Shown in pieces: positions 1,040 through 63,980 of a stretch of 64,000 nucleotides of DNA. Each line of letters opens with the position of its first letter. Positions within the stretch are counted from its first letter, which is position 1. A model generated the notes under the pieces. The model saw nothing but the letters and a program-made list of their open reading frames with translations, made no database searches and was not told where the DNA came from. The DNA comes from Escherichia phage BME3: sequence record PP239276.1. One strand, given 5' to 3'. Both the position numbers and the translations under genes were made by a program.

Positions 1040-1284
1040 TAGTTATCCTCCTTATCAGGGGCAGGTGATCTGCCCCAACGTAAATCTATTAAATTCTTCA
1101 TTAGTCTGGATGGTGTGATCATAAAAACAAAAGCCCAGCCCATCCATTCAGGAATTTCTTTATCAATTCCCAAATAAATAAACATACTGGACATAACAAT
1201 CATACCAATAGCATTCCAAACTTTAGTAGAACTGACTTTATTATCAGGATATGTACAAAACATACCTATTAAAAATTTTCTCAT
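1039..1284 (-). CDS. small membrane protein (two hydrophobic helices)
   Basis: 81-aa ORF with segments AIGMIVMSSMFIYLGI and WMGWAFVFMI; translationally coupled to neighbours. Confidence 0.4.
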   Translation of the reverse strand: MRKFLIGMFCTYPDNKVSSTKVWNAIGMIVMSSMFIYLGIDKEIPEWMGWAFVFMITPSRLMKNLIDLRWGRSPAPDKEDN

Positions 1285-1589
1285 GGTGCGTTCTCATTAC
1301 TTTTTAAATCACGATATACAGCTAATTCCCCAAGGTCTACAGAACCCGCTGAATGCACAAGTACAGCAGCACTAAGACTAATGGCAGTAGTACCTGGGGC
1401 AATATCAGCAGGTAGGGAATACGCCCTTTGCGTCTCCTTGTCATAGATAACCTTATACCCACCCAAATCCACACCAACTGAGAAGTAAACAACCTCAGAT
1501 TGTTTAACTCCAAAGTGACGGGCTACTGCTTGTTTATTGGTTAAGATTCCGGTTGAACCTTTACCACCTTGGGAGAACATTTCGTTCAT
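1281..1589 (-). CDS. hypothetical protein
   Basis: 102-aa ORF, 4-nt overlap with downstream gene. Confidence 0.4.
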   Translation of the reverse strand: MNEMFSQGGKGSTGILTNKQAVARHFGVKQSEVVYFSVGVDLGGYKVIYDKETQRAYSLPADIAPGTTAISLSAAVLVHSAGSVDLGELAVYRDLKSNENAP

Positions 1590-1607
1590 AACAACCTGTT
1601 TATTTTT

Positions 1608-1632
1608 CTAAAAAACCCCGCCAAAGCGGGGG
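1608..1632 (-). terminator. rho-independent terminator after tailspike gene
   Basis: GC hairpin CCCCGC-caaa-GCGGGG followed on the minus strand by TTTTTT, directly after the stop at 1639. Confidence 0.5.
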
Positions 1633-1638
1633 TTAGTT

Positions 1639-3297
1639 TTACACGTAAGCACTCTCGAACTTACAGAACCAAGTCGTTCCTTCATCAGTTGTTGACAACC
1701 TAAAAACTTGTGTTCCAGCTGCTGTCAAAGATGGGGTACTGCTTGCTAATTTAACATTTTCACCAAATGTTATTGTTTTAGATGTTGTTGAATAGACAGC
1801 CAAAAGAACCTCAACATAACCAGTTAGTGTATTTGTTAATACTGCTGGAGTTATTGTTACATCCCCTGTAACTGTAGCTGCGATGTAAGATGCGTCTGAA
1901 AAGTCAGGCGCATAACTTGCTGTTGGCGTCTCGAACTTTGTACTTCTTACCAATACAGGAACTCCAACATTTTTCCTGAAAATTGTACTATTGCAAACCA
2001 TATCATACTCTATACCAACAAAATTCTTAGCTGCGAGTATGTTAGTAAATGTCTGATCCACAGAGTAAATATGAGTTATCAGCCTTGCCACCCATGCTGG
2101 TGAGTTTGAGTTTTCACACTCAATGAATGAGCAATTGCTACTGCCAACGGCGAATGGCATTAGTGATGCCGCATATGCAGATAACCCTGCGTCATTAAAC
2201 GCATTCATATTCACAAACGTCTGGCATTGAGAGAACGTATTACCGGTGGCTCCACCATCAATAAAAAAGCCAATCCCGCCGTTAATATAACCATCTAAAG
2301 CATCCAAATTTGCTTTCGTATAATCCCATTTTGACGGTGAATCAGCAAAGCACTGATTGAAGGAATTGTTTATTGAGTTCTGTACAACAAAGCAGCATTT
2401 CATCCTTGAGTTCTGGTCAGTGACTGTATCGTCATACATGCCCCAGTTGTGCACCTTACTAATTCTGTTATTGCCACCACCACGAACCCAGGTACCAAAT
2501 CGGAAATAACGACCTTCACCCATGCTAACCTGATGATCGCTACCTTCAACAATGTGGGCTGTGCAGAGCGGATTGGTTGGTTTTAATACACCAACAGCAT
2601 AAAACTTCAATAGGTGCACACCCATGCCGCCAGCAATATGGATGCCATGACCATCAACGTTGGCTACGTAAATGCCATCTAACTTGTTAGCATAGCCATC
2701 GGATATCTTAAACCCATTAACAGTTTTTGCACGGGCATCAATTAATAAGTTGCTGATATGCCCAGCGTATTGATTACCCATCCCTTTATCGCATTTAACA
2801 GCATAGCCAGAGGAGTCTGCGGCGAAGTCGTCGGTGAGGTACACCCCACCGAAACCAGCATCAATGCTAACATCTCCGTGAATGTGCAGTGTCGTACTGA
2901 TAGGATATTTCTTCCCATTCAGCCTGATAACTTTGCTTACAGTGTTAGGTTGTAGCCAGTCAGGATGGTTAGCAGCACTACTTGGTGCATGTTCTAAACC
3001 TGTTAAAGCTGCCGCAGCATCAATCGCATCCTGTAATGATGGATACATATCCGGGTTGACATTTATAATTTTCTTAAGCGCATTGCCAACAGTACCAGTT
3101 TCGTAATCAATTGACTTATCAAAACCTGAAAAACCTGCTCCATCTGTATCTTTCAACTGGGTGGCTAAAACCACCCCAGTGTCAGTAAGAAAGTTGGAAA
3201 CTGTGCTTTTAACAGTCTTATCAGGTTGGTCTAAAACCAGGTAATCAGAACCATTAACTTTTGATGTTTCGGGTAAATTAGTAATTGTAGTTGACAT
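1639..3297 (-). CDS. tailspike / tail fibre protein with beta-helix-like repeats (possible depolymerase)
   Basis: 552-aa ORF; Gly/Asn/Asp-rich repetitive middle region (HIHGDVSIDAGFGGVYL, GHGIHIAGGMGVH) typical of right-handed beta-helix tailspikes. Confidence 0.5.
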   Translation of the reverse strand: MSTTITNLPETSKVNGSDYLVLDQPDKTVKSTVSNFLTDTGVVLATQLKDTDGAGFSGFDKSIDYETGTVGNALKKIINVNPDMYPSLQDAIDAAAALTGLEHAPSSAANHPDWLQPNTVSKVIRLNGKKYPISTTLHIHGDVSIDAGFGGVYLTDDFAADSSGYAVKCDKGMGNQYAGHISNLLIDARAKTVNGFKISDGYANKLDGIYVANVDGHGIHIAGGMGVHLLKFYAVGVLKPTNPLCTAHIVEGSDHQVSMGEGRYFRFGTWVRGGGNNRISKVHNWGMYDDTVTDQNSRMKCCFVVQNSINNSFNQCFADSPSKWDYTKANLDALDGYINGGIGFFIDGGATGNTFSQCQTFVNMNAFNDAGLSAYAASLMPFAVGSSNCSFIECENSNSPAWVARLITHIYSVDQTFTNILAAKNFVGIEYDMVCNSTIFRKNVGVPVLVRSTKFETPTASYAPDFSDASYIAATVTGDVTITPAVLTNTLTGYVEVLLAVYSTTSKTITFGENVKLASSTPSLTAAGTQVFRLSTTDEGTTWFCKFESAYV

Positions 3298-3305
3298 TTT
3301 TACTC

Positions 3306-5465
3306 CTATATATAAAATTTTTGTGTTGTTACTAAATCTTCTCCAGATTTAGTGGCTAATGTAATTCCACTTATAGTGGCAATCTCAACATTTACCTGTT
3401 TAAGAGTGATATCTTGCAAGTAGCAATTCAAAGGCACATTACCCATATAAAACACTTGGGATTTTGAATTAAGAACAGTTATTGAATCATGCATTATTTG
3501 TGGGTAAGCCCATATGTATTGATATAAACCAACAAACTTCTGGTCATTCAATACAATATTGCCTATAATCATTTTCCACAAATATGTTCTATAGTTTGAT
3601 TCAGGATCAAAGCCATATAATGGTGCTAGAGTTGCATCTGGAACAAACCCTGCAAGATAATGTATCTTATCGTAACTAAAACCTAGTTGCTCATTAGGTA
3701 TTGTGATAGCGTCGAAAGATTTTTCCATCTTACCTTCCAACAACCAGTCATAACATTCTGAACAATAAAAGTCAAAGTTCTCTGGGATATAATAATCTTT
3801 AGGGAAGTTAACAAACTCCATCATACCATTACCCAAAATGGATGGCACAAATGGTAACAATGTAACTTTAGCTCCAGGATATGCTAATCTGGTATCTGTT
3901 GCAAATTTAGCAACACGCAGTCCTAATGTTTTAGATAGGAATGCATAATATTCATCATATGGTGTACCAGTTTTATAATTTTTAACTGTACCAACATCTT
4001 GTGCATACAATCCAGTTTCATTATTAAATGCAACTTTGGTTGCATAATCATAAATACACGGCAGATTGGTAGCTGTGTTATACCACCACCACGGTTCACC
4101 AACCTGAATAATAACCGGAAGATCATTAGCAGCGGATATAGAAGCTATCTTATTTATTACACCTTGTAAATAATTCATCCCTTCATCAATTGAAGGAGAT
4201 AAAACATAACTTGGTGGCTCATAACCTGTAGCAGCCAGATCATCATTCCAAGTATGTTGTACCCATTCCACAGGACACACTGTACTCATAATTTCAAAAC
4301 TTAAGGAGTTCATTACTGTGTAGCCCATAGCTTTTGCATTAGCGTGGAAATTATCAAACCAGGCTTCTGTTGCTGGGTTTAAATATTCTGTTCTGTTCAA
4401 AGCCCATTTATTAGAACCAGCATCCCAACTAAATTGATAATAGTGTGACATACCATTATAATGGTTAATCATATCCCTATAACCTAATCTATAGGTGTTG
4501 GAAATAACTCGCTCTGGGGTCAGGTTATACATATCATCATAAGATGTGCACATTCTTATGGTGTGTGCTGGAACATTTAAATTACCCATATTCATCATAC
4601 TGTAACCAGTATCAGGCTCTAGTATGGTAAACTTAAAGGAAAGATCCATATTGTCTACAGGTATAACATCTTCAATTTCTTGATACCTTGCGGAGATCAA
4701 GGAGAAGAACATGTTATCTATCTGTGTAGTGTCAACAACAATATCATTTTCTGGCCCAGATTTTAAATTTGAGAAATCTAATTTGATTATTGCTGTTTTA
4801 CCGTCCTCTGAAACTTCTTCTGCATAAAAGTTTAGAGATACATAATGAACTGTTTCATCCTTCAGTGTCACTGTTAAGGATGGCAATAATTTTTCTTCTT
4901 TTAATCCAGGAACACCTTGACTAAGTTCCATTTTAAACCAAAGTTTCTCTTTACTTAAGTCAGAATGTTCTTGGTAGCCTAATCCTTTGTGATCATATTT
5001 ATCGTAAGTTGACCAAATAATCCCAGCAAGACCAGCCACTGTCCTATTAACCATTCTTGCTGTGAAAGAATCACCATTAGAGATAATAGAACAACTTTCT
5101 GTTGCTTGAGAATCTATTGTCCAAAACTTAGGATCAAACATTCTAGACTTCACAACAGGCCAAGTTAGCGGGGTCGTATTCGATTGATTAGTCGTAATAA
5201 CACAACGAATTTCTTCATTGATCATCATGTTATTTTGACTTATGCTAGTAATCTCAAGAGTAAAATAAAGATCTAAAGAGTTTGCCGGACGTTCATATAC
5301 ATCAACCACTACAGTAGCAGAATCTGCATCAGAAGGGAACGTTACTGTTCCCTGTTTAGCTACATAATCTCTACCAGCGACCGCCGTTCCATCGACGGTC
5401 TTATAGCTGAATGAACTGGCATTTACTCTCGTATTTCGAGTTACAGTAAAAATAGCCTGTTTCAT
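3306..5465 (-). CDS. tail fibre / receptor-binding protein (putative)
   Basis: 719-aa ORF in the tail-fibre block, Trp/Tyr/Asn-rich. Confidence 0.4.
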   Translation of the reverse strand: MKQAIFTVTRNTRVNASSFSYKTVDGTAVAGRDYVAKQGTVTFPSDADSATVVVDVYERPANSLDLYFTLEITSISQNNMMINEEIRCVITTNQSNTTPLTWPVVKSRMFDPKFWTIDSQATESCSIISNGDSFTARMVNRTVAGLAGIIWSTYDKYDHKGLGYQEHSDLSKEKLWFKMELSQGVPGLKEEKLLPSLTVTLKDETVHYVSLNFYAEEVSEDGKTAIIKLDFSNLKSGPENDIVVDTTQIDNMFFSLISARYQEIEDVIPVDNMDLSFKFTILEPDTGYSMMNMGNLNVPAHTIRMCTSYDDMYNLTPERVISNTYRLGYRDMINHYNGMSHYYQFSWDAGSNKWALNRTEYLNPATEAWFDNFHANAKAMGYTVMNSLSFEIMSTVCPVEWVQHTWNDDLAATGYEPPSYVLSPSIDEGMNYLQGVINKIASISAANDLPVIIQVGEPWWWYNTATNLPCIYDYATKVAFNNETGLYAQDVGTVKNYKTGTPYDEYYAFLSKTLGLRVAKFATDTRLAYPGAKVTLLPFVPSILGNGMMEFVNFPKDYYIPENFDFYCSECYDWLLEGKMEKSFDAITIPNEQLGFSYDKIHYLAGFVPDATLAPLYGFDPESNYRTYLWKMIIGNIVLNDQKFVGLYQYIWAYPQIMHDSITVLNSKSQVFYMGNVPLNCYLQDITLKQVNVEIATISGITLATKSGEDLVTTQKFYI

Positions 5466-5473
5466 TATTTTCC

Positions 5474-8350
5474 TTATTTGGTTACATCAACACTAATATC
5501 ATTCATAGTTAGAACAGTTAGTGTTGGTATGTTACTATTATCCAAAATTGGTAAAGCGTTTTGAGGGTTTAGTTTACGATACAAGGCATATAAACCAAAA
5601 CCACGTAATAGTTCTCCAGCATGGAAACCAAAGAACATTCCGTTATCTGAATCTGGGCGTGGTGCAACACTCCAGGAACCATTCATCGGATGGTTAGGGG
5701 AGAGCACAATATAGTTTTGCTGAATCAGATCAAAACATCTGTCTGCTACAATACCAATGTTTGGAATTTGTGAATCATAACCTGCCAAACCCATGATTGA
5801 ACAACCAGCCATAAACAGTGCAGACATATGACTAGTAAAGTCATCTATAGGTGCAAGAACTGTACCATCTGGGTTAAAGATAGTTGGTGTTCTTCCGTCA
5901 TTATTGTCTTGGAACCATTTAAGATAGTTGATCCAATTTTTACAAACTGTTACTAGTTTTTCAGGAGGTGTTTCTCCTCTTTGTACAAGTTCGTATACAG
6001 CATGACAAGCACAGTAGAATGCACGAGCTTCATAACCATCCCACGCTTTTTCATTCCAGTGTTTCATAGTAAACGTATTAGGTTCACCGTATTTTCTTGC
6101 ATCCCAACGATCCCACACATATGCTTGTGCCATAGGCCCAGGCATCACAGGATCAAACGTGTTATAAAACCACATTTGAGCATCATACAAGAAATCAATA
6201 CTGTTGTTTAAACGTGTCCAATCAATATCCCTACCTGCGAAACAGTATAAGGAAGGATACTGGTATCCTGGGTATGGAATACCACGCCATCCATCGTATA
6301 ATGCAGTGTTTGGGTCACTGATATTAGAGAATGGAATTATTCCTGGTGTGTAATTAAGACTATTTAACTTATAGTCAATAATAGTACAATCACCTAACTT
6401 AGCAGTATGAGGACTTGAAGCCTGTACAGTAATACGGAAGTACATGGTATAATCATCACCAGAAGATGACGAATATCTTTCAGGTACATCGTTAATACAA
6501 TAGAAATCTATTGTTCCTGTTAAACCATTGACAGGAGCCGTATCAAGAACTAAATTTACCTGATCTACCGCAGTAAGATTTATGGCTGAAGGTTTAGGAT
6601 CTGTATCTGGATGATTAGGCTGGTAAGCACTTAACTTAAAATCAGAAGCTGATAAAGTCTTCGTGCTCCATGCCCCTTGCGTTTTAGGCAGCATAGCCCA
6701 CCATCTCCAACCTTGAGCATCCGTGATAGTCATGTTAAAGTCATCTTCATATGTTCTATATGTGATAGACTTAACATTAGCTTTTGATGTAGGAGTTAAC
6801 CAAAAACCAACAGTGATACCACCATCCGTATCCATTGATGCAGTAACAATCTGGTCATTATTAGTTCCAGCAATACCTGTTACATACTTATATTGTACCA
6901 CAGTATTGTCACCCCAGTCAACAATAATTCGCGGGTCTGCTATAATATATGTTCCACCATTCGGAGGGGTGCTTCTCATAAAGCTGGATAGTGGAATATC
7001 CATGCTTGTCATATTAGCTGTACCCAGTGGTAAGCCACAACGGTAAGTTACTGTGTTATTTTCATCTTTGGTCTTACTTAATTCCAACTCTGGACGGAAA
7101 AGAATACCATGTCCTGCGTCATCTACACCTTGAAACTGAACTCGTAACTTAGAGTTCTGATCAACTTTAAACCAAATGGCTTGCTGTTCTAATGTTGTTT
7201 GAGCAGCAACATCTTGTCTAATAACAATATAACCTAAAGTATCTCTTGAATATTTAGGTATTGCTGTAGATGGATACGAATAATCGTAAGAGATGCCATC
7301 TGTAAACGGAATAGTTGCATATGTAGATTTACGGAAGAATTTATCAAACATATCAATGTTTGAGTAATCTTGACACACTAACAGTGAAGACTGCCAGCAT
7401 AGCCAATATTTTCTTTCTCCTGTAATTTGGTACATCAGGTAATTAGCATCACACCACCAAGTTTCGGCATCTGACGCATTATCCTGAAAGCCCATTTCTA
7501 CCGGAACGTTAACTGGTCTGTTATGCCACATAGTGTTACGCTCCATTAAATAACCGCCGTGTTCAACAGGGTTACAAGTCGCGTAGTTAAATTTATATGT
7601 ACCGTTTACAGAAGTATTTTTTAGTTGAACTGTTCCGTATTGAGATGTTGGAAAACCTTCTTCTAAGATATTTCCATCCCAATCAACTTTACGTCCTAGA
7701 CGATCAATGATCCAATCAACGTCCCATTGATCTCCATTCTTAGACCAATCTGTTGTTCCATCTGCATTAACAGCATATACTGTAGCGTTTACAGAGTTCC
7801 ATCCTAGATTACCATTAAAAGCAAACCATGCTTTGTCAAGGTATTCTCCCCAATGAGGAGCACCATGAGGAATAACTGTTCTACCGTTAGTCCACGTCAT
7901 TAAGCTACCCTTAAAACCTCCGTGTGTAGGGTAGCCATCATCTGTAAGAGGATAGTGTGCAAGACGTGGTTCTTTACCGTTAATAATCCAGTTAGGGCGA
8001 TATTTTGCTGGCGGATCTGGGATAGGTTGACCACCAAAGAAGTAATCTATATAGGCTTGCCAATATTTTTTAGCAGAGTCTAAATACTTTGTATCGCCGG
8101 AAGCTAGGTATGCATAAGCGCAACCAAGAATAAGCACGGATTGACCTTCTGTTGTAGCATCCCCGTTTGGTTGCCCTTCTTGAGCAGTCCAGTTTATAAA
8201 GTGTCTGTTATTAGCTAGAACGTTTTGTGGGTTTAATACATAGTGTTGCACTGTAGGATCTACAGTTAAACCTGTATTACGATCTAAGAACTGAATATGT
8301 CCATCGATCAGTTGAAAAACATTGTCAATTCTGTGCTTAATTCTTGACAT
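5474..8350 (-). CDS. large tail-associated protein, possible glycoside-hydrolase-like domain
   Basis: 958-aa ORF, Trp-rich, N-terminal region GCAYAYLASGDTKYLDSAKKYW; adjacent to baseplate genes. Confidence 0.4.
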   Translation of the reverse strand: MSRIKHRIDNVFQLIDGHIQFLDRNTGLTVDPTVQHYVLNPQNVLANNRHFINWTAQEGQPNGDATTEGQSVLILGCAYAYLASGDTKYLDSAKKYWQAYIDYFFGGQPIPDPPAKYRPNWIINGKEPRLAHYPLTDDGYPTHGGFKGSLMTWTNGRTVIPHGAPHWGEYLDKAWFAFNGNLGWNSVNATVYAVNADGTTDWSKNGDQWDVDWIIDRLGRKVDWDGNILEEGFPTSQYGTVQLKNTSVNGTYKFNYATCNPVEHGGYLMERNTMWHNRPVNVPVEMGFQDNASDAETWWCDANYLMYQITGERKYWLCWQSSLLVCQDYSNIDMFDKFFRKSTYATIPFTDGISYDYSYPSTAIPKYSRDTLGYIVIRQDVAAQTTLEQQAIWFKVDQNSKLRVQFQGVDDAGHGILFRPELELSKTKDENNTVTYRCGLPLGTANMTSMDIPLSSFMRSTPPNGGTYIIADPRIIVDWGDNTVVQYKYVTGIAGTNNDQIVTASMDTDGGITVGFWLTPTSKANVKSITYRTYEDDFNMTITDAQGWRWWAMLPKTQGAWSTKTLSASDFKLSAYQPNHPDTDPKPSAINLTAVDQVNLVLDTAPVNGLTGTIDFYCINDVPERYSSSSGDDYTMYFRITVQASSPHTAKLGDCTIIDYKLNSLNYTPGIIPFSNISDPNTALYDGWRGIPYPGYQYPSLYCFAGRDIDWTRLNNSIDFLYDAQMWFYNTFDPVMPGPMAQAYVWDRWDARKYGEPNTFTMKHWNEKAWDGYEARAFYCACHAVYELVQRGETPPEKLVTVCKNWINYLKWFQDNNDGRTPTIFNPDGTVLAPIDDFTSHMSALFMAGCSIMGLAGYDSQIPNIGIVADRCFDLIQQNYIVLSPNHPMNGSWSVAPRPDSDNGMFFGFHAGELLRGFGLYALYRKLNPQNALPILDNSNIPTLTVLTMNDISVDVTK

Positions 8351-55887: not shown

Positions 55888-56757
55888 ATGAAAGGTATTA
55901 TCTTAGCAGGTGGTAGTGGAACAAGACTTTACCCAGTTACTAAAGGGGTTAGTAAACAACTATTACCAATTTACGATAAACCTATGATTTATTATCCACT
56001 CTCTGTCCTAATGCTTTCTGGAATTAGGGAAATACTAATAATTACAACACCAGAAGATCAAATTAATTTTGTAAATCTTCTAGGTGATGGTTCTTCTTTT
56101 GGTATTTCCCTACAGTATGCAATACAGGATAGCCCAAAAGGTTTAGCAGAAGCGTTTATTATTGGTGAGAACTTTATTGGTGAAGATTCTGTAGCACTTG
56201 TGCTAGGTGATAATTTATTCTTTGGTCAGAGTTTTGGTAGCATTTTAGATTCTGCTAAAGAACATATTGAAAAGAATGGTGGAGCTAATATTTTTGGGTA
56301 TCACGTAAATGATCCTGAAAGATTTGGTGTTGTTGAGTTTGATTCTGAAGGTACAGTGGTGAGTATTGAAGAAAAACCAAAAGCACCAAAAAGCAACTAT
56401 GCAATTACAGGCTTGTACTTTTACGATAATTCTGTTATACAGAAAGCTAAGAGCGTTAAACCTTCTGCTAGAGGGGAGTTAGAGATTACAGATATAAATG
56501 AGATGTACTGGAAAGAAAAGACTTTACGTGTCTGTAAACTAGGAAGAGGTTTCACTTGGCTGGATACAGGAACACATGAAAGTCTTATGGAAGCATCTCA
56601 ATTTGTTCATGCGATAGAAAAGCAACAAGGTATGAAGGTTGCATGCCTAGAGGAGATTGCTTTTAAAAATGAATGGATTACTTTAGACTCTGTAAAAAGT
56701 TCTGGAGAGGTTTTAAGTAAAACAGACTACGGTAAGTATTTACTTAAATTAAAATAA
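55888..56757 (+). CDS. rmlA: glucose-1-phosphate thymidylyltransferase
   Basis: 289-aa ORF; [18 protein letters not shown]...[14 protein letters not shown] signature. Confidence 0.85.
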
Positions 56758-56769
56758 AGGGGGAATTAA

Positions 56770-57324
56770 ATGATTCAAGCAACAAAAATCGAAGATTTGT
56801 TGATCATTCAACCTGACGTTTACGGAGATGAACGTGGCTTTTTCTTAGAAAGTTTTAATCAGGCTTTATATGATCAATACATAGGTAAACAAAACTTTGT
56901 CCAGGATAACCACTCACGTTCTATTCGAGGAGTTCTACGTGGGCTTCATTTTCAAAAGAAAAACCCACAAGGGAAGTTAGTACGTTGTGTTCGTGGTGAA
57001 GTTTATGATGTTGCTGTAGATATTAGGGTTGGTAGTCCAACATTTGGAGAATGGGTAGGTGTTCTCTTATCTGAAAAGAATAAAACACAATTTTGGATTC
57101 CTCCTGGTTTCGCTCATGGCTTTGTTGTGATTAGCGACATTGCTGATTTTGAATATAAATGTACAGAATATTACGATCCGACTTCAGAGTGTAGTCTTGC
57201 GTGGAATGATCCAGATATCAATATAGATTGGGGTTTTGATTTAATCTTTAATGATATTAATTTTAAACCTATCTTGTCACAAAAAGATCAGCAAGCCAAA
57301 ACACTAAAGGAGATCATATTTTGA
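56770..57324 (+). CDS. rmlC: dTDP-4-dehydrorhamnose 3,5-epimerase
   Basis: 184-aa ORF; RGLHFQ and cupin-like pattern. Confidence 0.75.
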   Translation: MIQATKIEDLLIIQPDVYGDERGFFLESFNQALYDQYIGKQNFVQDNHSRSIRGVLRGLHFQKKNPQGKLVRCVRGEVYDVAVDIRVGSPTFGEWVGVLLSEKNKTQFWIPPGFAHGFVVISDIADFEYKCTEYYDPTSECSLAWNDPDINIDWGFDLIFNDINFKPILSQKDQQAKTLKEIIF

Positions 57325-58151
57325 CAAAATTTTTAATCTTTGGTTCAAAAGGTCAATTAGGACAGTCTTTGGCAAAAGTTGCGCCCGAAGATGTTATTTT
57401 GATTGAAGCAAGTGATGTAGACATTACCAACTTTAAAGATGTTATGAATAGTCTTGTACAGCATGTACCTGATGTTGTTGTGAATTGTGCGGCTTACACG
57501 GCAGTAGATAAAGCTGAAGAAGATGTTAACACCTGTATAAATGTTAATGCATACGGTGCAACAAACATTGCCAAAGCATGTAATGATTTACTGATACAGT
57601 TTGTACATATTTCAACAGACTATGTTTTTGATGGGCATGTCGCTGGCACAGAAGATAGTAAAACAAACCCCTTGAACACCTATGGTTACAGTAAACAATT
57701 AGGTGAAACTTTAGTACAAACAGTTTGTCCTACAGCACTTATTATCAGAACAGCTTCTGTTTATAGTGAGTTTGGACATAACTTTTTGAAAACTATGTTG
57801 GAACGCTACAACGGTGGTCAAAAAGAATTTAATGTAGTATGTGATCATTTATCATGTCCTACTTATGCACCTGATCTGGCAGAAACAATTTTTAAACTTG
57901 TAAAAGATGGTGTAAATAGTAAAATTGTACACTATGCAGGTGCAGATTATATTTCTTGGTATGATTTTGCACGAAAGATATTTCTTGTTATAGATTTATC
58001 TGTTACAGTTAATCCTGTATCTGCTTCAACCTATAATTCTAAAGCAGTCAGACCAGCAACATCTTATTTAAAAACAGATCCTACTTTAAATCCGCGAAGT
58101 GTTGATAGCGGTATTGTAAGAACTTTAACTATACTTTTAAACAAGGAGTGA
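57321..58151 (+). CDS. rmlD: dTDP-4-dehydrorhamnose reductase
   Basis: 276-aa ORF; Rossmann N-terminus MTKFLIFGSKGQLGQSL and ISTDYVFDG. Confidence 0.75.
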   Translation: MTKFLIFGSKGQLGQSLAKVAPEDVILIEASDVDITNFKDVMNSLVQHVPDVVVNCAAYTAVDKAEEDVNTCINVNAYGATNIAKACNDLLIQFVHISTDYVFDGHVAGTEDSKTNPLNTYGYSKQLGETLVQTVCPTALIIRTASVYSEFGHNFLKTMLERYNGGQKEFNVVCDHLSCPTYAPDLAETIFKLVKDGVNSKIVHYAGADYISWYDFARKIFLVIDLSVTVNPVSASTYNSKAVRPATSYLKTDPTLNPRSVDSGIVRTLTILLNKE

Positions 58152-59902: not shown

Positions 59903-60397
59903 ATGACGCTAATTGAGATTGATCGCAATGGTATTGATGAATGCTATCAAGCTGGCTTAGTTAAGCCGAATGAGTTTAGACAGATTTATATTGACAAGAT
60001 TGAAAAAGAAATATCTCTTCGTTTAGAGAACATGACAACTTTGCAAAAAGTTCAGATGTTTTTTAGTTGGTTAAAAGGCGAGGATTGGCTAACTAAATAT
60101 TACCAGGAATTATCTGATAGTCAAGAAGGCTTGTTTGAGTGTATAATAAATATAGCTGGGTCTAATTCAGAATTACTCCTGATTGATGAAGAAGATTCTA
60201 AACTTCTTTTTCTTAGCAGTATCTTTCACAAGAAATCTATGTTAGTAAGAAATTGCAGTGATTTACTAAATCATCCACTAACAAGAACTAATAAAATTCT
60301 TGTGGATAAAGAAACACTAAGAGCTATTGATTACCTCCGTAAATATGTAAGCGGTGGTAAAGCAGTCCTTAAAACACTACAGGAGGAAGTACAATGA
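59903..60397 (+). CDS. hypothetical protein
   Basis: 164-aa ORF, ATGA overlap with the next gene. Confidence 0.35.
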   Translation: MTLIEIDRNGIDECYQAGLVKPNEFRQIYIDKIEKEISLRLENMTTLQKVQMFFSWLKGEDWLTKYYQELSDSQEGLFECIINIAGSNSELLLIDEEDSKLLFLSSIFHKKSMLVRNCSDLLNHPLTRTNKILVDKETLRAIDYLRKYVSGGKAVLKTLQEEVQ

Positions 60398-61047
60398 CAA
60401 CAATTATTGCAACACGTAACAAAATTCTGTCTGACGGTAAAGTAACAGTAGGTAGTCGTGTAGACACTTTAAATTTCAAGAAAGTGCGTAAAATTGGGGA
60501 TTACCTTGTTGGTGGTGCAGGACGTCTGTCTTCTATCCTGACTTTCTTTTCTTGGTTCGAACAAAACTTACAATGCCAAGCAGCACAAGAGACAATCCCA
60601 GGTTTGGTGATCCAGTCAGATCCTGACAAAGAAGATGAAGAGTTTGTGGCATTGGTTGTTCACCCAGACGGTAAAATTTATATGCACGAGGGTAATAATC
60701 CCACGCGAGCATATCCTTTAACTGAAGATTATTATGCTGTTGGTAGTGGGGCAGATTTTGCTTTAGCAGCTTTAGACGCTGGGGCATCCCCAGAAGAAGC
60801 GATGGAAGTTGCAAAACTGCGAGATGCTTTTTCAGGCGGTGAAACTTTTATCGAAGAGATCGAAGAACAACTGGAGTTAACAGCGGAAGATATTCTGAAC
60901 TTTAGCAAGGAGCAACTAATTAGTATGCTGTTGACTGGTGATCCTGATAGTGATGAAGCTGAAAGTATTTTAGCAGAAATGAAAGAATCACAAGAAAAAG
61001 TATTGACAGTCTCTGAAAAACTTGATAAAGTGTCCTCTGATAATTAA
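60394..61047 (+). CDS. HslV-like Ntn-hydrolase peptidase (proteasome beta-type)
   Basis: 217-aa ORF; MTTIIATRN...DGKVTVG...KKVRKIGDYLVGGAG and AVGSGADFALAALDAG parallel HslV (TTIVSVRR..., KKVRRL, AIGSGG); Thr2 would be the N-terminal nucleophile. Confidence 0.55.
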   Translation: MTTIIATRNKILSDGKVTVGSRVDTLNFKKVRKIGDYLVGGAGRLSSILTFFSWFEQNLQCQAAQETIPGLVIQSDPDKEDEEFVALVVHPDGKIYMHEGNNPTRAYPLTEDYYAVGSGADFALAALDAGASPEEAMEVAKLRDAFSGGETFIEEIEEQLELTAEDILNFSKEQLISMLLTGDPDSDEAESILAEMKESQEKVLTVSEKLDKVSSDN

Positions 61048-61088: not shown

Positions 61089-61517
61089 ATGTTACCAGTA
61101 CCTGTAACCTTTGTAGAAAAAGCCTACTACTCTTTAGAACAAAACTGTAAAAGAGCTAAAAATTTTATTGAAAGTTTAGCAGAACAGCGTTACACTGTAT
61201 CTAAAAAGGGATGGTTCAGAACTTCACAATATTCAGTCAACCCTTTCGGAGAAGTTCGTGTGCTGTATGGCAACACAGAAAATATCTTAGAAAGAATGTT
61301 AGAACTAGATAGGATCTCCTCCTGTGATTATCAACTGTTGAAATTTTACGATTTGTCAGAAAACTTTAAAAACTTTCTTGACGATTTATGTAAACGAAAA
61401 ACAGAAGAAGATACAATACCAGTATCTATGGAAGAATTAACGTTCTTAAGAGATATTATGGTTTTTGAAGAAGACCCTGAAATCACAAAAGAGGAGATTT
61501 TAAGTAGTGGCAAATAA
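61089..61517 (+). CDS. hypothetical protein
   Basis: 142-aa ORF with GGAGGAG RBS. Confidence 0.4.
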   Translation: MLPVPVTFVEKAYYSLEQNCKRAKNFIESLAEQRYTVSKKGWFRTSQYSVNPFGEVRVLYGNTENILERMLELDRISSCDYQLLKFYDLSENFKNFLDDLCKRKTEEDTIPVSMEELTFLRDIMVFEEDPEITKEEILSSGK

Positions 61518-62016
61518 GTATGATCGTCCACCAACTGATTACTATCCTACTCCACAAAAATGTATAAATGCATTATTTAGTGTAATAGATTTTAATAACC
61601 TTAAAGAAGAAGGTTTTATTTTTGCAGAACCGTGTAAAGGCGCTGCTGCTGCAATTTATCAACATTTTCCAGAAGGATCAGAATATTGTGAGTTAGAAGA
61701 AGGGAAAGATTATTTTAACCATGAATGGCATACTAAGCCGGATATTATAATCACAAATCCCCCATTCAAACTTGCACTTGAGTTCTTGCAAAAGAGCTTA
61801 AAAGAAGCAGACGTTTGCATATACTTGTTGCGTCTTGGGTTCCTAGAGTCTATTAAACGAAGGGAATTCCATAAACAGAATCCACCAACAAATTTGATTG
61901 TTCTTTCTGAACGCCCATCTTTTGTTGCAGGTGGTACTGATAAGACAGCATATGCTTGGTACGTCTACGACCCAAAAAACAGGCTGGGTTTAACTCAACC
62001 TTTCTATTTTGTTTAA
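61507..62016 (+). CDS. DNA methyltransferase (amino-MTase, NPPF motif; orphan)
   Basis: 169-aa ORF; FAEPCKGAAAA (SAM-binding motif I-like) followed by IIITNPPFKL (motif IV), the gamma-class order as in M.TaqI. Confidence 0.5.
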   Translation: MANKYDRPPTDYYPTPQKCINALFSVIDFNNLKEEGFIFAEPCKGAAAAIYQHFPEGSEYCELEEGKDYFNHEWHTKPDIIITNPPFKLALEFLQKSLKEADVCIYLLRLGFLESIKRREFHKQNPPTNLIVLSERPSFVAGGTDKTAYAWYVYDPKNRLGLTQPFYFV

Positions 62017-62520: not shown

Positions 62521-63183
62521 ATGAAGTTTGTACTGTATCATCGACTTTCTAAGAAGAAACAACAAGGCAACCAGTATGGTATAGAATCACAGGAAGCAGA
62601 TATCCAACGCTTCCTGGATTCACAAGAAAATTATACTATTGTAGGTAGCTTTGCAGAGTTTTATTCTGGTAAAGGCGATTGGAAGCAACGTAGAGAGCTT
62701 GTAAAAGCTGTTAATCTTTGCAAAGAAACAGGTGCTACACTTGTTGTTGCTAAGGTTGACCGTCTTGGACGTAACACAGCTTCTGTTGCAACCTTGTTAG
62801 AGATGATTAATGTACGAATAGCAACTATGCCCTCCGCTGAAAATATGATAATAAATATTTTAGCAGTTCTGGCAGAAGAAGAGGCTCGTGCAATATCTGA
62901 TCGTGTTAAGAAGAGCCTTAAAGTAGCAAAAGCGAAGGGAACGCTTCTTGGTGCAGCAAACCCTAAATACAAAAGAACAGATTATACGAAAACGGAAGAA
63001 GCAAAACGCTCAAAAGAGTTTGCGCTTTCTTTAAAAGATTCTTTAGTTGCATACAGAGCTTGTAAAACGCCATATATGACGATTGCAAAACATCTGAATG
63101 AATCAGGAAAGAGAACTATTCGTGGGAGTTTGTTCGATGCCAAAGCGGTACAACGTCTTTGTGCAAAATTGAATATTAAATAA
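62521..63183 (+). CDS. serine recombinase (resolvase/invertase family)
   Basis: 220-aa ORF; YHRLSKKKQ (catalytic Ser region), VAKVDRLGRN and EEEARAISDRVKKSL parallel resolvase catalytic-domain motifs; C-terminal helix-turn-helix-like segment. Confidence 0.55.
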   Translation: MKFVLYHRLSKKKQQGNQYGIESQEADIQRFLDSQENYTIVGSFAEFYSGKGDWKQRRELVKAVNLCKETGATLVVAKVDRLGRNTASVATLLEMINVRIATMPSAENMIINILAVLAEEEARAISDRVKKSLKVAKAKGTLLGAANPKYKRTDYTKTEEAKRSKEFALSLKDSLVAYRACKTPYMTIAKHLNESGKRTIRGSLFDAKAVQRLCAKLNIK

Positions 63184-63407: not shown

Positions 63408-63980
63408 ATGCGTTTAGCTTTTAACGGGAAGATAAGCACAGCAAACATATTGTCAGCAGTAGGATTATTAGGTAAAAAATTCACACCTTTCAGTTTACCA
63501 GTTTGTGTAGATTTTGATCATGTGTTTGATATTAATAATCCTTCACGTTGTATTGCCAGAAGTAATATTGATAATCCAAGCGAAAATCTGTTTTATATTA
63601 CTAAACCATCCCAAGCAATTTTGAATCAATGGGAAGCAGGTCTGATTAAACCAGGTAAATATTTTGCATTACTACCTTGTAAATCATTGGCTATAGAGGA
63701 CAGTCTAAACTATGCAAACAATCTTGTTGTTACAGCATTCATTGTCTCAGAAAAAGAAGAAACTGCGGTACTTGCAAACACTGTTAAATCTTTGTATGAT
63801 GCTTTGGGTGTTACTTACACTACCTTCGTTTGTGAAGATATTCCACATTGCGTTGAATTCGTGGTGAATGGTGTAACTGTATGTCGTGTAGAAACAACTC
63901 AAGACGAAGACGTTTTTATTACTGTAGCCGATGTAATATCTGAACCTGTGTTTAGCTACGCAGTTTCATTAACACATTAA
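63408..63980 (+). CDS. hypothetical protein
   Basis: 190-aa ORF with AAGGAG RBS. Confidence 0.4.
   Translation: MRLAFNGKISTANILSAVGLLGKKFTPFSLPVCVDFDHVFDINNPSRCIARSNIDNPSENLFYITKPSQAILNQWEAGLIKPGKYFALLPCKSLAIEDSLNYANNLVVTAFIVSEKEETAVLANTVKSLYDALGVTYTTFVCEDIPHCVEFVVNGVTVCRVETTQDEDVFITVADVISEPVFSYAVSLTH

Follow-up and report, generated by a model that had tools for sequence, protein, structure and literature searches.

The open reading frame at 61507-62016 (plus strand) of a 64,000-nucleotide stretch of the Escherichia phage BME3 genome (PP239276.1; the whole stretch is referred to as the window) encodes, in what is a Justusliebigvirus genome, a 169-residue orthologue of phi92 gp056 that has the fold and the sequence motifs of an amino-methyltransferase. 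This protein is probably a stand-alone, SAM-dependent N6-adenine DNA methyltransferase that consists of a trimmed gamma-class (M.TaqI-like) catalytic domain. Its nearest relatives of solved structure are adenine-N6 enzymes, of which M.TaqI is the best match by sequence, and DNA is the likely substrate.

The gp056 gene is real, strongly conserved and under purifying selection. DNA that is at least 95% identical is present in 55 phage records, in many of which the gene is labelled a DNA methyltransferase or an N6-adenine methyltransferase, and comparison with the phAPEC8 and KP13-26 orthologues gives dN/dS values of 0.055-0.066. The position of the start is kept among these orthologues despite differing codons (GTG, ATG and TTG); an in-frame TAA lies upstream of the GTG at 61507, at 61501-61503, and the phi92 record annotates a ribosome-binding site at the place equivalent to the GAGGAG of the window (Table 1). 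The GC content of the gene equals that of the genome, and a scan for promoters and terminators gave counts not above the shuffled expectation. The gene itself is not new, as the DNA methyltransferase annotation is found already in phi92, in many other records and in PHROG 799, which matches residues 2-163 and whose name is an annotation only; moreover, phi92 has two methyltransferases besides gp056, gp043 and gp155. The 142-residue "members" of the 90% identity cluster, considered as products of alternative starts, turned out to be the upstream protein gp057, a clustering artefact.

Table 1. Features of the gp056 locus in the window; "invariant" and percentage conservation refer to an alignment of 43 family sequences.
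Feature	Position	Strand	Remarks
Shine-Dalgarno-like GAGGAG	61491..61496	+	10 nt 5' of the GTG; inside the 3' end of gp057
Minimal methyltransferase gene (Phi92_gp056 orthologue)	61507..62016	+	GTG start, TAA stop; phrog_799 E=7.8e-57; dN/dS ~0.06
Motif X-like DYYPTP, residues 11-16	61537..61554	+	T15 invariant; D11, Y13, P16 at least 90% conserved
Motif I FAEPCKGAAAA, residues 39-49, putative SAM-binding loop	61621..61653	+	Aligns with M.TaqI LEPACAHG
Motif II E62 (in CELEE) and motif III D68-Y69 (in KDYF)	61687..61716	+	E62, D68 at least 90% conserved; Y69 invariant
Catalytic motif IV DIIITNPPF, residues 79-87	61741..61767	+	I81, T83, N84, P85, P86 invariant
RPSF, residues 136-139	61912..61923	+	R136, P137, F139 invariant
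Variable loop VAGGTDKTA, residues 140-148	61924..61950	+	Lower pLDDT here (76)
C-terminal strand YAWYVYD	61951..61971	+	Y149, W151 at least 90% conserved; D155 invariant

The motifs are arranged collinearly, in the order DYYPTP (X), FAEPCKGAAAA (I), E62 (II), DY (III), DIIITNPPF (IV) and RPSF (VIII-like). The very small amino-methyltransferase originally predicted from motif I and NPPF is borne out as an enzyme of the (D/N)PP(Y/F) class, both motifs being located and conserved within a class I fold; DYYPTP, E62, D68-Y69 and RPSF had been missed in that first reading. In the alignments, DYYPTP is matched by the TP at residues 22-23 of M.TaqI and by HsdM's YFTP, and the DY of motif III by the DF of M.TaqI motif III. 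Around motif I, the family consensus is F-x-E-P-C-K-G-x-G, with F39, E41, P42, C43 and G45 at least 90% conserved in the 43-sequence alignment. The NPPF tetrapeptide (residues 84-87, 61756-61767) is the sole [DNS]PP[YFW] in the window when stop-free segments of at least 100 amino acids are considered in all six frames, and the region around it gives local matches to EcoRI_methylase, N6_Mtase, Eco57I and PADLOC MTase_II, the last at E=9e-5. By analogy with M.TaqI, we propose that RPSF is the counterpart of motif VIII, whose aromatic residue would stack on the flipped base.

The motif IV tetrapeptide is NPPF in 206 of the 266 retrieved family members and NPPY in 59. The (D/N)PP(Y/F) motif is common to protein methyltransferases of the PrmC type, so the same chemistry could belong to an enzyme that modifies glutamine or lysine in proteins, or else to an N4-cytosine DNA methyltransferase, given that NPPY-bearing HsdM subunits are able to make m4C (PMC5100572). 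Either activity is very improbable for gp056: the window protein has NPPF, which goes with m6A in HsdM M1 subunits (PMC5100572), and neither PrmC nor any known m4C enzyme is among the significant PDB matches obtained with Foldseek or with the broadened family profile A3.

The AlphaFold model (pLDDT 90.2, pTM 0.87) has a trimmed, Rossmann-like class I methyltransferase fold, in which EPCKG (residues 41-45) comes after strand 39-41 and NPPF after strand 80-83. The top Foldseek matches in the PDB are all class I methyltransferases, and nearly all are adenine-N6 enzymes: 2f8l, M.TaqI, Dim1/KsgA/Erm, PH1948, METTL5, TrmM, EcoKI HsdM and M.BseCI. These matches are weak (TM 0.5-0.62) and include rRNA and tRNA adenine methyltransferases, with E-values for Dim1, KsgA, Erm38, PH1948, METTL5 and TrmM close to that of M.TaqI; the highest TM belongs to PH1948, a putative RNA enzyme (TMq 0.62). 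The fold is compatible with an RNA adenine-N6 methyltransferase that, like Erm/KsgA, METTL5/PH1948 or TrmM, would have rRNA, tRNA or mRNA of the host or the phage as its target and would tune translation during infection instead of modifying DNA. Such an activity would suit the small size of the protein, which resembles that of METTL5 and PH1948 (~200 aa). The protein is also slightly acidic (pI 5.8), which is unusual for a DNA-binding protein and counts against the DNA methyltransferase reading.

Sequence comparison points toward DNA. When profile A3 was compared with PDB sequences, M.TaqI was the best match (E=1e-7, collinear over TP, LEPACAHG, DFL and NPPY), followed by the DNA adenine methyltransferase 7vru (2.5e-7) and, further down, HsdM subunits (3e-5 to 1e-4); ErmAM (3.7e-6) scored only about 40-fold worse than M.TaqI, ErmC' reached 6e-4, and METTL5 (E=0.39-0.40) and PH1948 (E=0.28) were not significant. 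No Pfam or NCBIfam model is passed by the window protein or its relatives. Of the gamma-class models PF07669, PF02384 and PF13651, the window protein matches only PF13651 (EcoRI_methylase), at E=0.041 and with 13.6 bits where 26.4 are required, and relatives likewise stay below threshold; these sub-threshold matches fall mostly in DNA adenine methyltransferase families, although an MTS domain, which would favour an RNA target, gives sub-threshold matches in 21 of the 43 members. Enzymes of the Erm/KsgA type have a C-terminal RNA-binding domain, which gp056 lacks, and in the replication modules of phages members of the family are grouped with genes for DNA methyltransferases. On balance, an RNA substrate appears improbable. 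The likeness to RNA methyltransferases that the original prediction had set against its reading exists at the level of the fold (Erm/KsgA, PH1948, METTL5) and, for ErmAM and ErmC', in the profile comparison, which is led by M.TaqI. Of the predicted DNA methyltransferase, the kinship with adenine-N6 enzymes stands; that DNA is the substrate we infer, as rRNA enzymes of the Erm/KsgA type also match.

The family, which corresponds to PHROG 799, is confined to phages and prophages and comprises 13,812 representatives at 50% identity, nearly all of 160-220 aa. Its members lie in early and replication modules, often next to other DNA methyltransferase genes: at one locus (L006), PF02086 and PF05869 DNA methyltransferase genes are found within 4 kb of the family member, and a C5-cytosine DNA methyltransferase gene adjoins it in 8 of 57 bacterial loci. 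In the flanking reading frames of the window, PHROGs, Pfam and PADLOC gave no sign of a nuclease or a specificity subunit, nor did a nuclease recur across the 57 bacterial loci, in agreement with the predicted orphan status of the enzyme. Literature searches turned up neither biochemical nor methylome data on any member of the family, and nothing specific on the methylation or restriction digestion of DNA from phi92, rV5 or PVP-SE1 or on methyltransferases that are small or devoid of a target-recognition domain (TRD).

That so short a chain leaves little room for a TRD is corroborated by the model and by the narrow size range of the family. The protein ends at residue 169, straight after the last core strands, and the Rossmann core itself is trimmed in the AlphaFold model, with a very short beta2-beta4 segment. 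Some homologues are longer (the L041 and L050 reading frames; P0123, P0137 and P0265), and no Pfam domain was detected in their C-terminal extensions. A catalytic subunit of 169 aa without a TRD might be inactive or unspecific by itself and acquire target recognition from a second copy in a homodimer, from another phage protein such as gp057, or from a host factor. Among the relatives by profile, HsdM is dependent on HsdS; one family protein (P0226) carries two copies of the domain in tandem in a single chain; and the end of gp057 shares 11 nt with the start of gp056, an arrangement kept in phAPEC8 and KP13-26. As a family-wide specificity partner, however, gp057 was rejected: it has no Pfam or PADLOC match, the reading frames upstream of the L002, L003 and L006 homologues are unrelated to it, and the upstream gene in rV5-like phages, Mydovirus and Certrevirus is of the ClpP/HslV type, with no similarity to gp057. 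Across the 57 bacterial loci, too, neighbour families recurred only within groups of closely related prophages. The tandem protein is one out of thousands, and its single-sequence AlphaFold model, tried as a model of the dimer, is unusable (pLDDT 31). Dependence on a partner therefore seems improbable, to about the same degree as an RNA substrate.

The original prediction had further suggested anti-restriction self-methylation, possibly with relaxed specificity. The lack of a TRD would fit a non-specific enzyme of the Hia5 or M.EcoGII type that would give the phage genome broad cover from restriction. Small phage Dam enzymes of PF05869, such as T1 Dam, are GATC-specific, so small size does not imply relaxed specificity. 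The EcoRI, EcoRV and EcoP1 systems are all blocked by adenine methylation inside their sites. Non-specific adenine methyltransferases derived from phages do exist (Hia5, Hin1523 and Nme1821; PMC3299994), but they belong to a different family. In the BASEL study, phi92-like phages were described as "exceptionally" sensitive to restriction-modification (PMC8594841). One of them, EmilieFrey (Bas61), encodes an orthologue 98.8% identical to the window protein, and its row in the raw data of that study holds the no-plaque placeholder for the EcoRI, EcoRV and EcoP1 hosts and a reduction of about 9-fold for EcoKI (PMC8594841). To the extent of that data row, the plating results largely refute relaxed specificity, which we regard as very improbable, and broad anti-restriction protection by gp056 is disfavoured. 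The high sensitivity of phi92-like phages means that a protective role is seen for no tested system; an RNA target for gp056 would account for a phage that is unprotected from restriction.

Under the preferred reading, that of an N6-adenine DNA methyltransferase without a TRD, homology of the motifs suggests that SAM would be bound by motifs X (DYYPTP), I (FAEPCKG), II (E62) and III (DY), and that the flipped-out adenine would be held by NPPF together with F139, an invariant residue of RPSF. Loops of the catalytic domain itself would select the target sequence; candidates are the N-terminal arm, which is conserved (R7, D11), and the variable loop that follows F139, with dimerisation as a possible further contributor. 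We propose this loop (residues 140-148) as a candidate minimal target-recognition loop; at its position, 33 of 247 relatives carry a lysine-rich Cys4 insert of about 30 aa. The gene would be expressed together with early and DNA-metabolism genes, and replicating phage DNA would be methylated at a short, specific motif. The outcome may be that phage DNA is protected from certain host restriction systems only, or that it is marked for another purpose; general protection would not be provided.

A bolder reading, which we consider unlikely, though a little less so than an RNA substrate or an obligate partner taken singly, is that the family represents the smallest known self-sufficient adenine methyltransferase of nucleic acids, reading DNA through loops or a homodimer or else targeting RNA. 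In its DNA version, a motif could be read by loops of the catalytic domain or by homodimerisation alone, and the loop after RPSF could be a plug-in mini-TRD that has grown into a Cys4 zinc ribbon in ~13% of members. In its RNA version, the family could be a widespread phage-encoded m6A writer that acts on host rRNA or tRNA.

Orphan methyltransferases are common in phages and this gene was already annotated, so that the finding as such is ordinary. Its value lies in a very large phage and prophage family that has no Pfam model and whose members, at ~170 aa, approach the minimum size of a nucleic-acid methyltransferase. A minimal enzyme of this kind could reveal how sequences are recognized without a TRD and could serve as a compact methylation tool. 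The high restriction sensitivity of the phages that carry it also calls for caution in annotation: the label "DNA methyltransferase" should not be taken to denote an anti-restriction function.

Compared with known systems, gp056 differs from a restriction-modification system in having no adjoining endonuclease or specificity gene. Hia5, Hin1523 and Nme1821 resemble it as phage-derived orphan adenine methyltransferases for which an anti-restriction role has been proposed (PMC3299994), but they are alpha-class enzymes of ~281 aa with DPPY and a divergent TRD, whereas gp056 has 169 aa, NPPF and no TRD, and Hia5 and Hin1523 were rejected as relatives. Near-complete adenine methylation by the Hia5 group shields DNA from many enzymes, whereas EmilieFrey, judging by its data row, is fully restricted by EcoRI, EcoRV and EcoP1. 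The phage Dam family (PF05869), of which T1 Dam is a confirmed member, is also made up of small, phage-borne orphan enzymes, its profile of ~169 positions with motif IV near position 70 is similar to gp056, and the two families share phage modules, as at the L006 locus, which carries both. Membership of gp056 in PF05869 was nevertheless rejected: the window protein has no match at E up to 10, 12 of the 43 relatives give sub-threshold matches local to motif IV (best E=0.006), and in an hhalign comparison of profile A1 with T1 Dam, motif IV alone is aligned (probability 1.4%).

Small RNA m6A methyltransferases (PH1948/METTL5, Erm/KsgA, TrmM) share NPPF with gp056, and PH1948 and METTL5 (COG2263) are similar to it in size; the likeness of these two to gp056 is structural only, and the company that the gp056 gene keeps is that of DNA methyltransferase and replication genes. 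The closest parallel is with gamma-class enzymes, both the Eco57I/TaqI-like (PF07669) and the N6_Mtase (PF02384) families, the latter including HsdM. Unlike HsdM, gp056 has no HsdS-binding regions, and its core is trimmed; it stays below the cut-offs of both Pfam models. M.TaqI has 421 aa, made up of a catalytic domain of ~240 aa and a TRD, and it is this C-terminal TRD that gp056 lacks. Within the catalytic domain, M.TaqI residues 22-115 align collinearly with the TP, (L/F)EP(A/C)xG, D(F/Y) and NPP(Y/F) of the gp056 family, the M.TaqI fold matches the gp056 model at a Foldseek E of 2e-4, and the motifs have the same unpermuted order, X, I, II, III, IV and VIII.

Between 60000 and 63500 the sequence has 99% identity with Escherichia phage phi92 and with some 55 further genomes of Justusliebigvirus (Stephanstirmvirinae), and the methyltransferase ORF is the counterpart of Phi92_gp056 (YP_009012387), which the RefSeq phi92 record names "DNA methyltransferase", with an identical start and an annotated ribosome-binding site. 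Other records call it "DNA N-6-adenine methyltransferase", "putative N6 adenine methyltransferase" or "hypothetical protein"; the gene is real and already annotated in public records. GTG 61507, two codons after an in-frame TAA (61501-61503), is the sole possible start, and the start position is identical in the orthologues of phAPEC8 (ATG) and Klebsiella phage KP13-26 (TTG), against which dN/dS is 0.055-0.066 with saturated dS. The GC content of the gene (0.365) is close to that of the window (0.374). As the original prediction had it, the ORF carries FAEPCKGAAAA (residues 39-49) followed by NPPF (residues 84-87), the latter being the only [DNS]PP[YFW] among stop-free segments of at least 100 aa in the six frames of the whole window; this motif IV is confirmed not to be a chance occurrence. 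At least two further methyltransferase genes of phi92, gp043 and gp155, both appear to lie beyond the window limits, since no further [DNS]PP[YFW] ORF occurs in the window and gp043 maps past coordinate 64000. Four records labelled "Campylobacter phage" (MG065639, MG065661, MG065653, MG065672), with 98% identity to E. coli phi92-like phages or with rV5-like orthologues, are probably mislabelled or contaminant assemblies.

Features of the methyltransferase gene and its surroundings (nucleotide positions in the window; residues numbered in the 169-aa protein, with conservation in A1, the family alignment of 43 sequences)
Feature	Position	Strand	Remarks
dTDP-sugar genes (thymidylyltransferase, 3,5-epimerase, reductase)	~56000-58150	+	phi92 record; placed by correspondence with positions 1-2152 of locus L001
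HslV/20S-proteasome-like peptidase gene	60394-61047	+	phrog_1040, E=2e-61; Pfam Proteasome, E=2e-5; two genes upstream of the methyltransferase
gp057	61089-61517	+	142 aa; no known domain; phrog_15078; shares 11 nt (61507-61517) with the start of the methyltransferase gene
GAGGAG	61491-61496	+	upstream of the GTG start at 61507
Methyltransferase ORF	61507-62016	+	169 aa
N-terminal arm	R7		>=90%
Motif X	D11-x-Y13-x-T15-P16		T15 invariant; D11, Y13, P16 >=90%
Motif I	F39-x-E41-P42-C43-x-G45		all >=90%
Motif II	E62		>=90%
Motif III	D68-Y69		Y69 invariant; D68 >=90%
Motif IV	D79-x-I81-x-T83-N84-P85-P86-F87		I81, T83, N84, P85, P86 invariant; D79, F87 >=90%
Basic residues	K96, R109, R118		R118 invariant; K96, R109 >=90%
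VIII-like	R136-P137-x-F139		R136, P137, F139 invariant
C-terminal strand	D145, Y149-x-W151, D155		D145, D155 invariant; Y149, W151 >=90%
Equivalent of the Cys4 insert site	61924-61950		between RPxF and YxW
Serine recombinase/DNA invertase gene	62521-63183	+	Pfam Resolvase, E=8e-22; phrog_125
190-aa ORF	63408-63980	+	"histidyl tRNA synthetase" in phrog_4806, phi92 and phAPEC8 records

The motif order in A1 (X, I, II, III, IV, then VIII) is the unpermuted order of the gamma class. A search of 5.8 billion proteins found 225 relatives, those listed being mostly 150-200 aa long and bearing no precomputed Pfam domain, while an HMM search run exhaustively over 1.84 billion representatives gave 13,812 proteins at E<=1e-3 and 7,035 at E<=1e-10, with lengths of 160-220 aa for nearly all of the best 150 of the 13,812. 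Among the 266 retrieved proteins that have a motif IV, it reads NPPF in 206, NPPY in 59 and NPPH in one, and [YFWH]x[TS]P occurs near the N-terminus in 251 retrieved proteins. Of 247 members, 185 have a loop of 9-10 aa from RPxF to YxW, and that of the window protein is of the short form (VAGGTDKTA, 9 aa); precisely here, between these invariant elements, 33 of the 247 have an insert of the Lys-rich Cys4 type, about 30 aa long and probably a zinc ribbon, and the loop may hint at how the target is read. One 560-aa relative, P0226, has a tandem pair of small methyltransferase domains, the first with NPPH and the second with NPPY, which follow a low-complexity N-terminus resembling a signal peptide; its single-sequence AlphaFold model reached a pLDDT of only 31. 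Like the loop, the tandem copies may bear on how the target is read, and they hint at possible action of the domain as a dimer.

Modelled by AlphaFold2 with A1, the window protein adopts a compact Rossmann fold (pLDDT 90.2, pTM 0.87), in which about 18 residues separate the second strand from the NPPF strand. The predicted chain stops directly past the last core strands and leaves no room for a target-recognition domain (TRD), in agreement with the scarcity of space originally noted. Foldseek matches in the PDB (E ~2e-4 to 5e-3, TM 0.4-0.62) comprise DNA adenine methyltransferases (M.TaqI, EcoKI HsdM, M.BseCI), RNA adenine methyltransferases (Dim1/KsgA, Erm38, METTL5, TrmM and PH1948, with the best TMq, 0.62) and the uncharacterised 2f8l, deposited merely as a putative class I SAM-dependent methyltransferase; neighbours in the viral library are small phage proteins labelled methyltransferase or uncharacterised. 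As modelled, the fold establishes a predicted amino-methyltransferase of the adenine-N6 type and does not settle its substrate.

Sequence profiles were used to weigh DNA against RNA. Pfam and NCBIfam gave only marginal matches local to motif IV (EcoRI_methylase, E=0.041; met_A_Alw26, E=0.27), PHROGs returned phrog_799, "DNA methyltransferase" (E=7.8e-57), and the best PDB sequence match with A1 alone was an HsdM subunit (E=0.013). When A1 was broadened with full-length bacterial homologues of like size (~165-230 aa) to give profile A3, M.TaqI came out on top (E=1e-7), in a collinear alignment through TP, LEPACAHG (motif I), DFL (motif III) and NPPY (motif IV), followed by the DNA adenine methyltransferase 7vru (2.5e-7), ErmAM (3.7e-6), three HsdM subunits (3e-5 to 1e-4), ErmC' (6e-4) and M.BseCI (7e-4); PH1948 and METTL5 reached only 0.28-0.40. 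On this central question, for which the original prediction had named homology to RNA or protein methyltransferases as counter-evidence, a DNA enzyme ranks best, and the RNA enzymes ErmAM and ErmC' also match. Sub-threshold Pfam matches of family members are chiefly to DNA adenine methyltransferase families (EcoRI_methylase in 39 of the 43 A1 sequences, N6_Mtase in 12, Dam in 12, Eco57I in 10), with the generic small domain MTS in 21, and PADLOC gave a weak Type II methyltransferase match (E=9e-5). In HsdM pairs, NPPF subunits yield m6A and NPPY subunits m4C (PMC5100572). Homologues are located in phage early and replication modules; in the metagenomic phage contig L006 the family gene keeps company with two PF02086 genes and a DNA methyltransferase gene of PF05869, adjoining DnaB and ThyX, and 8 of the 57 bacterial (prophage) loci analysed have a C5-cytosine DNA methyltransferase gene directly beside the family gene. 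This company points to a DNA substrate, in the same direction as the profiles. On the basis of the A3 ranking, the sub-threshold Pfam and PADLOC matches, the NPPF-m6A correspondence and the genomic company, DNA adenine is therefore the probable substrate, and an RNA substrate of the kind suggested by ErmAM and the Foldseek neighbours is unlikely.

Published phenotypes bear on its specificity. In the BASEL study (PMC8594841), phi92-like phages are described as 'exceptionally' sensitive to restriction-modification. EmilieFrey (Bas61 of the BASEL collection) is one of them, and its orthologue matches the window protein at 98.8% identity. Its raw plating data (BASEL supplement file 7, experiment 1; genome site counts from the S5 table) give 2.7e7 pfu per spot on the vector host (sites not applicable) and on EcoCFT_I (7 sites), 8e6 on EcoCFT_II (212 sites) and 3e6 on EcoKI (12 sites); EcoRI (70 sites), EcoRV (100) and EcoPI (114) carry the placeholder 1e-06, which we take to mean no plaques. 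BASEL stocks were raised on K-12 without restriction systems (PMC8594841). Progeny DNA from such a host would still have been exposed to a phage-encoded methyltransferase. EcoRI, EcoRV, EcoKI and EcoP1 each have a cognate methylase that acts on adenine. A non-specific adenine methyltransferase like Hia5 (PMC3299994) would therefore have protected the phage, and the no-plaque rows, obtained with so similar an orthologue, disfavour relaxed specificity. The suggestion of anti-restriction self-methylation with relaxed specificity is thus contradicted in this near-identical phage; a narrow specificity against other systems, or a non-defensive role, is possible. The literature searched yielded no data from methylomes, digestions or biochemistry for any member of the family.

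No recurrent nuclease or specificity subunit emerged from clustering of all flanking ORFs in the 57 bacterial loci, and no nuclease signature was detected in the window's ORFs flanking the gene. The upstream ORFs of distant homologues are related neither to gp057 nor to one another, and the upstream gene in rV5-like, Mydovirus and Certrevirus phages encodes an unrelated ClpP/HslV-type protein. With no conserved partner in the homologue loci or the window, the methyltransferase is thus an orphan, apparently working by itself or with its own copies; the description of a very small orphan amino-methyltransferase was correct. Several neighbouring features merit mention. The four L006 methyltransferase genes fall within about 5 kb (1251-6538), the PF02086 ones being D12-class, and the ORF directly upstream of the small methyltransferase looks macro-domain-like by eye. 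gp057 sequences share a 90% identity protein cluster with the unrelated methyltransferase, probably an artefact, perhaps of read-through or fused gene calls across the overlap. In Vequintavirinae, the gene abutting the methyltransferase encodes a protein annotated ClpP/HslV that is longer than the window's HslV-like peptidase and unrelated to it. The DNA invertase gene, a candidate target of which would be an invertible tail-fibre segment, sits in a myovirus regarded as virulent. The histidyl tRNA synthetase name looks doubtful, since the ORF has no Pfam match and 190 aa is far too short for HisRS. The dTDP-sugar genes were described as putative dTDP glycosylation machinery, yet without restriction protection (PMC8594841).

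Among known families, gp056 is like the phage Dam enzymes of PF05869 in its small size, its layout and its place in the genome; T1 Dam matches PF05869 at E=1.7e-70, and membership of the window protein was rejected by Pfam and by comparison with T1 Dam. By sequence and model, gp056 resembles gamma-class adenine methyltransferases of the M.TaqI type in their catalytic domain, to which it is distantly related and whose way of working it probably shares. Unlike them, it lacks the TRD, the defining feature of that family, and it falls below Pfam thresholds; for both reasons it is not filed under PF07669, PF02384 or PF13651. Judged by its sequence match, it is clearly a member of PHROG 799, the name of which is an annotation.
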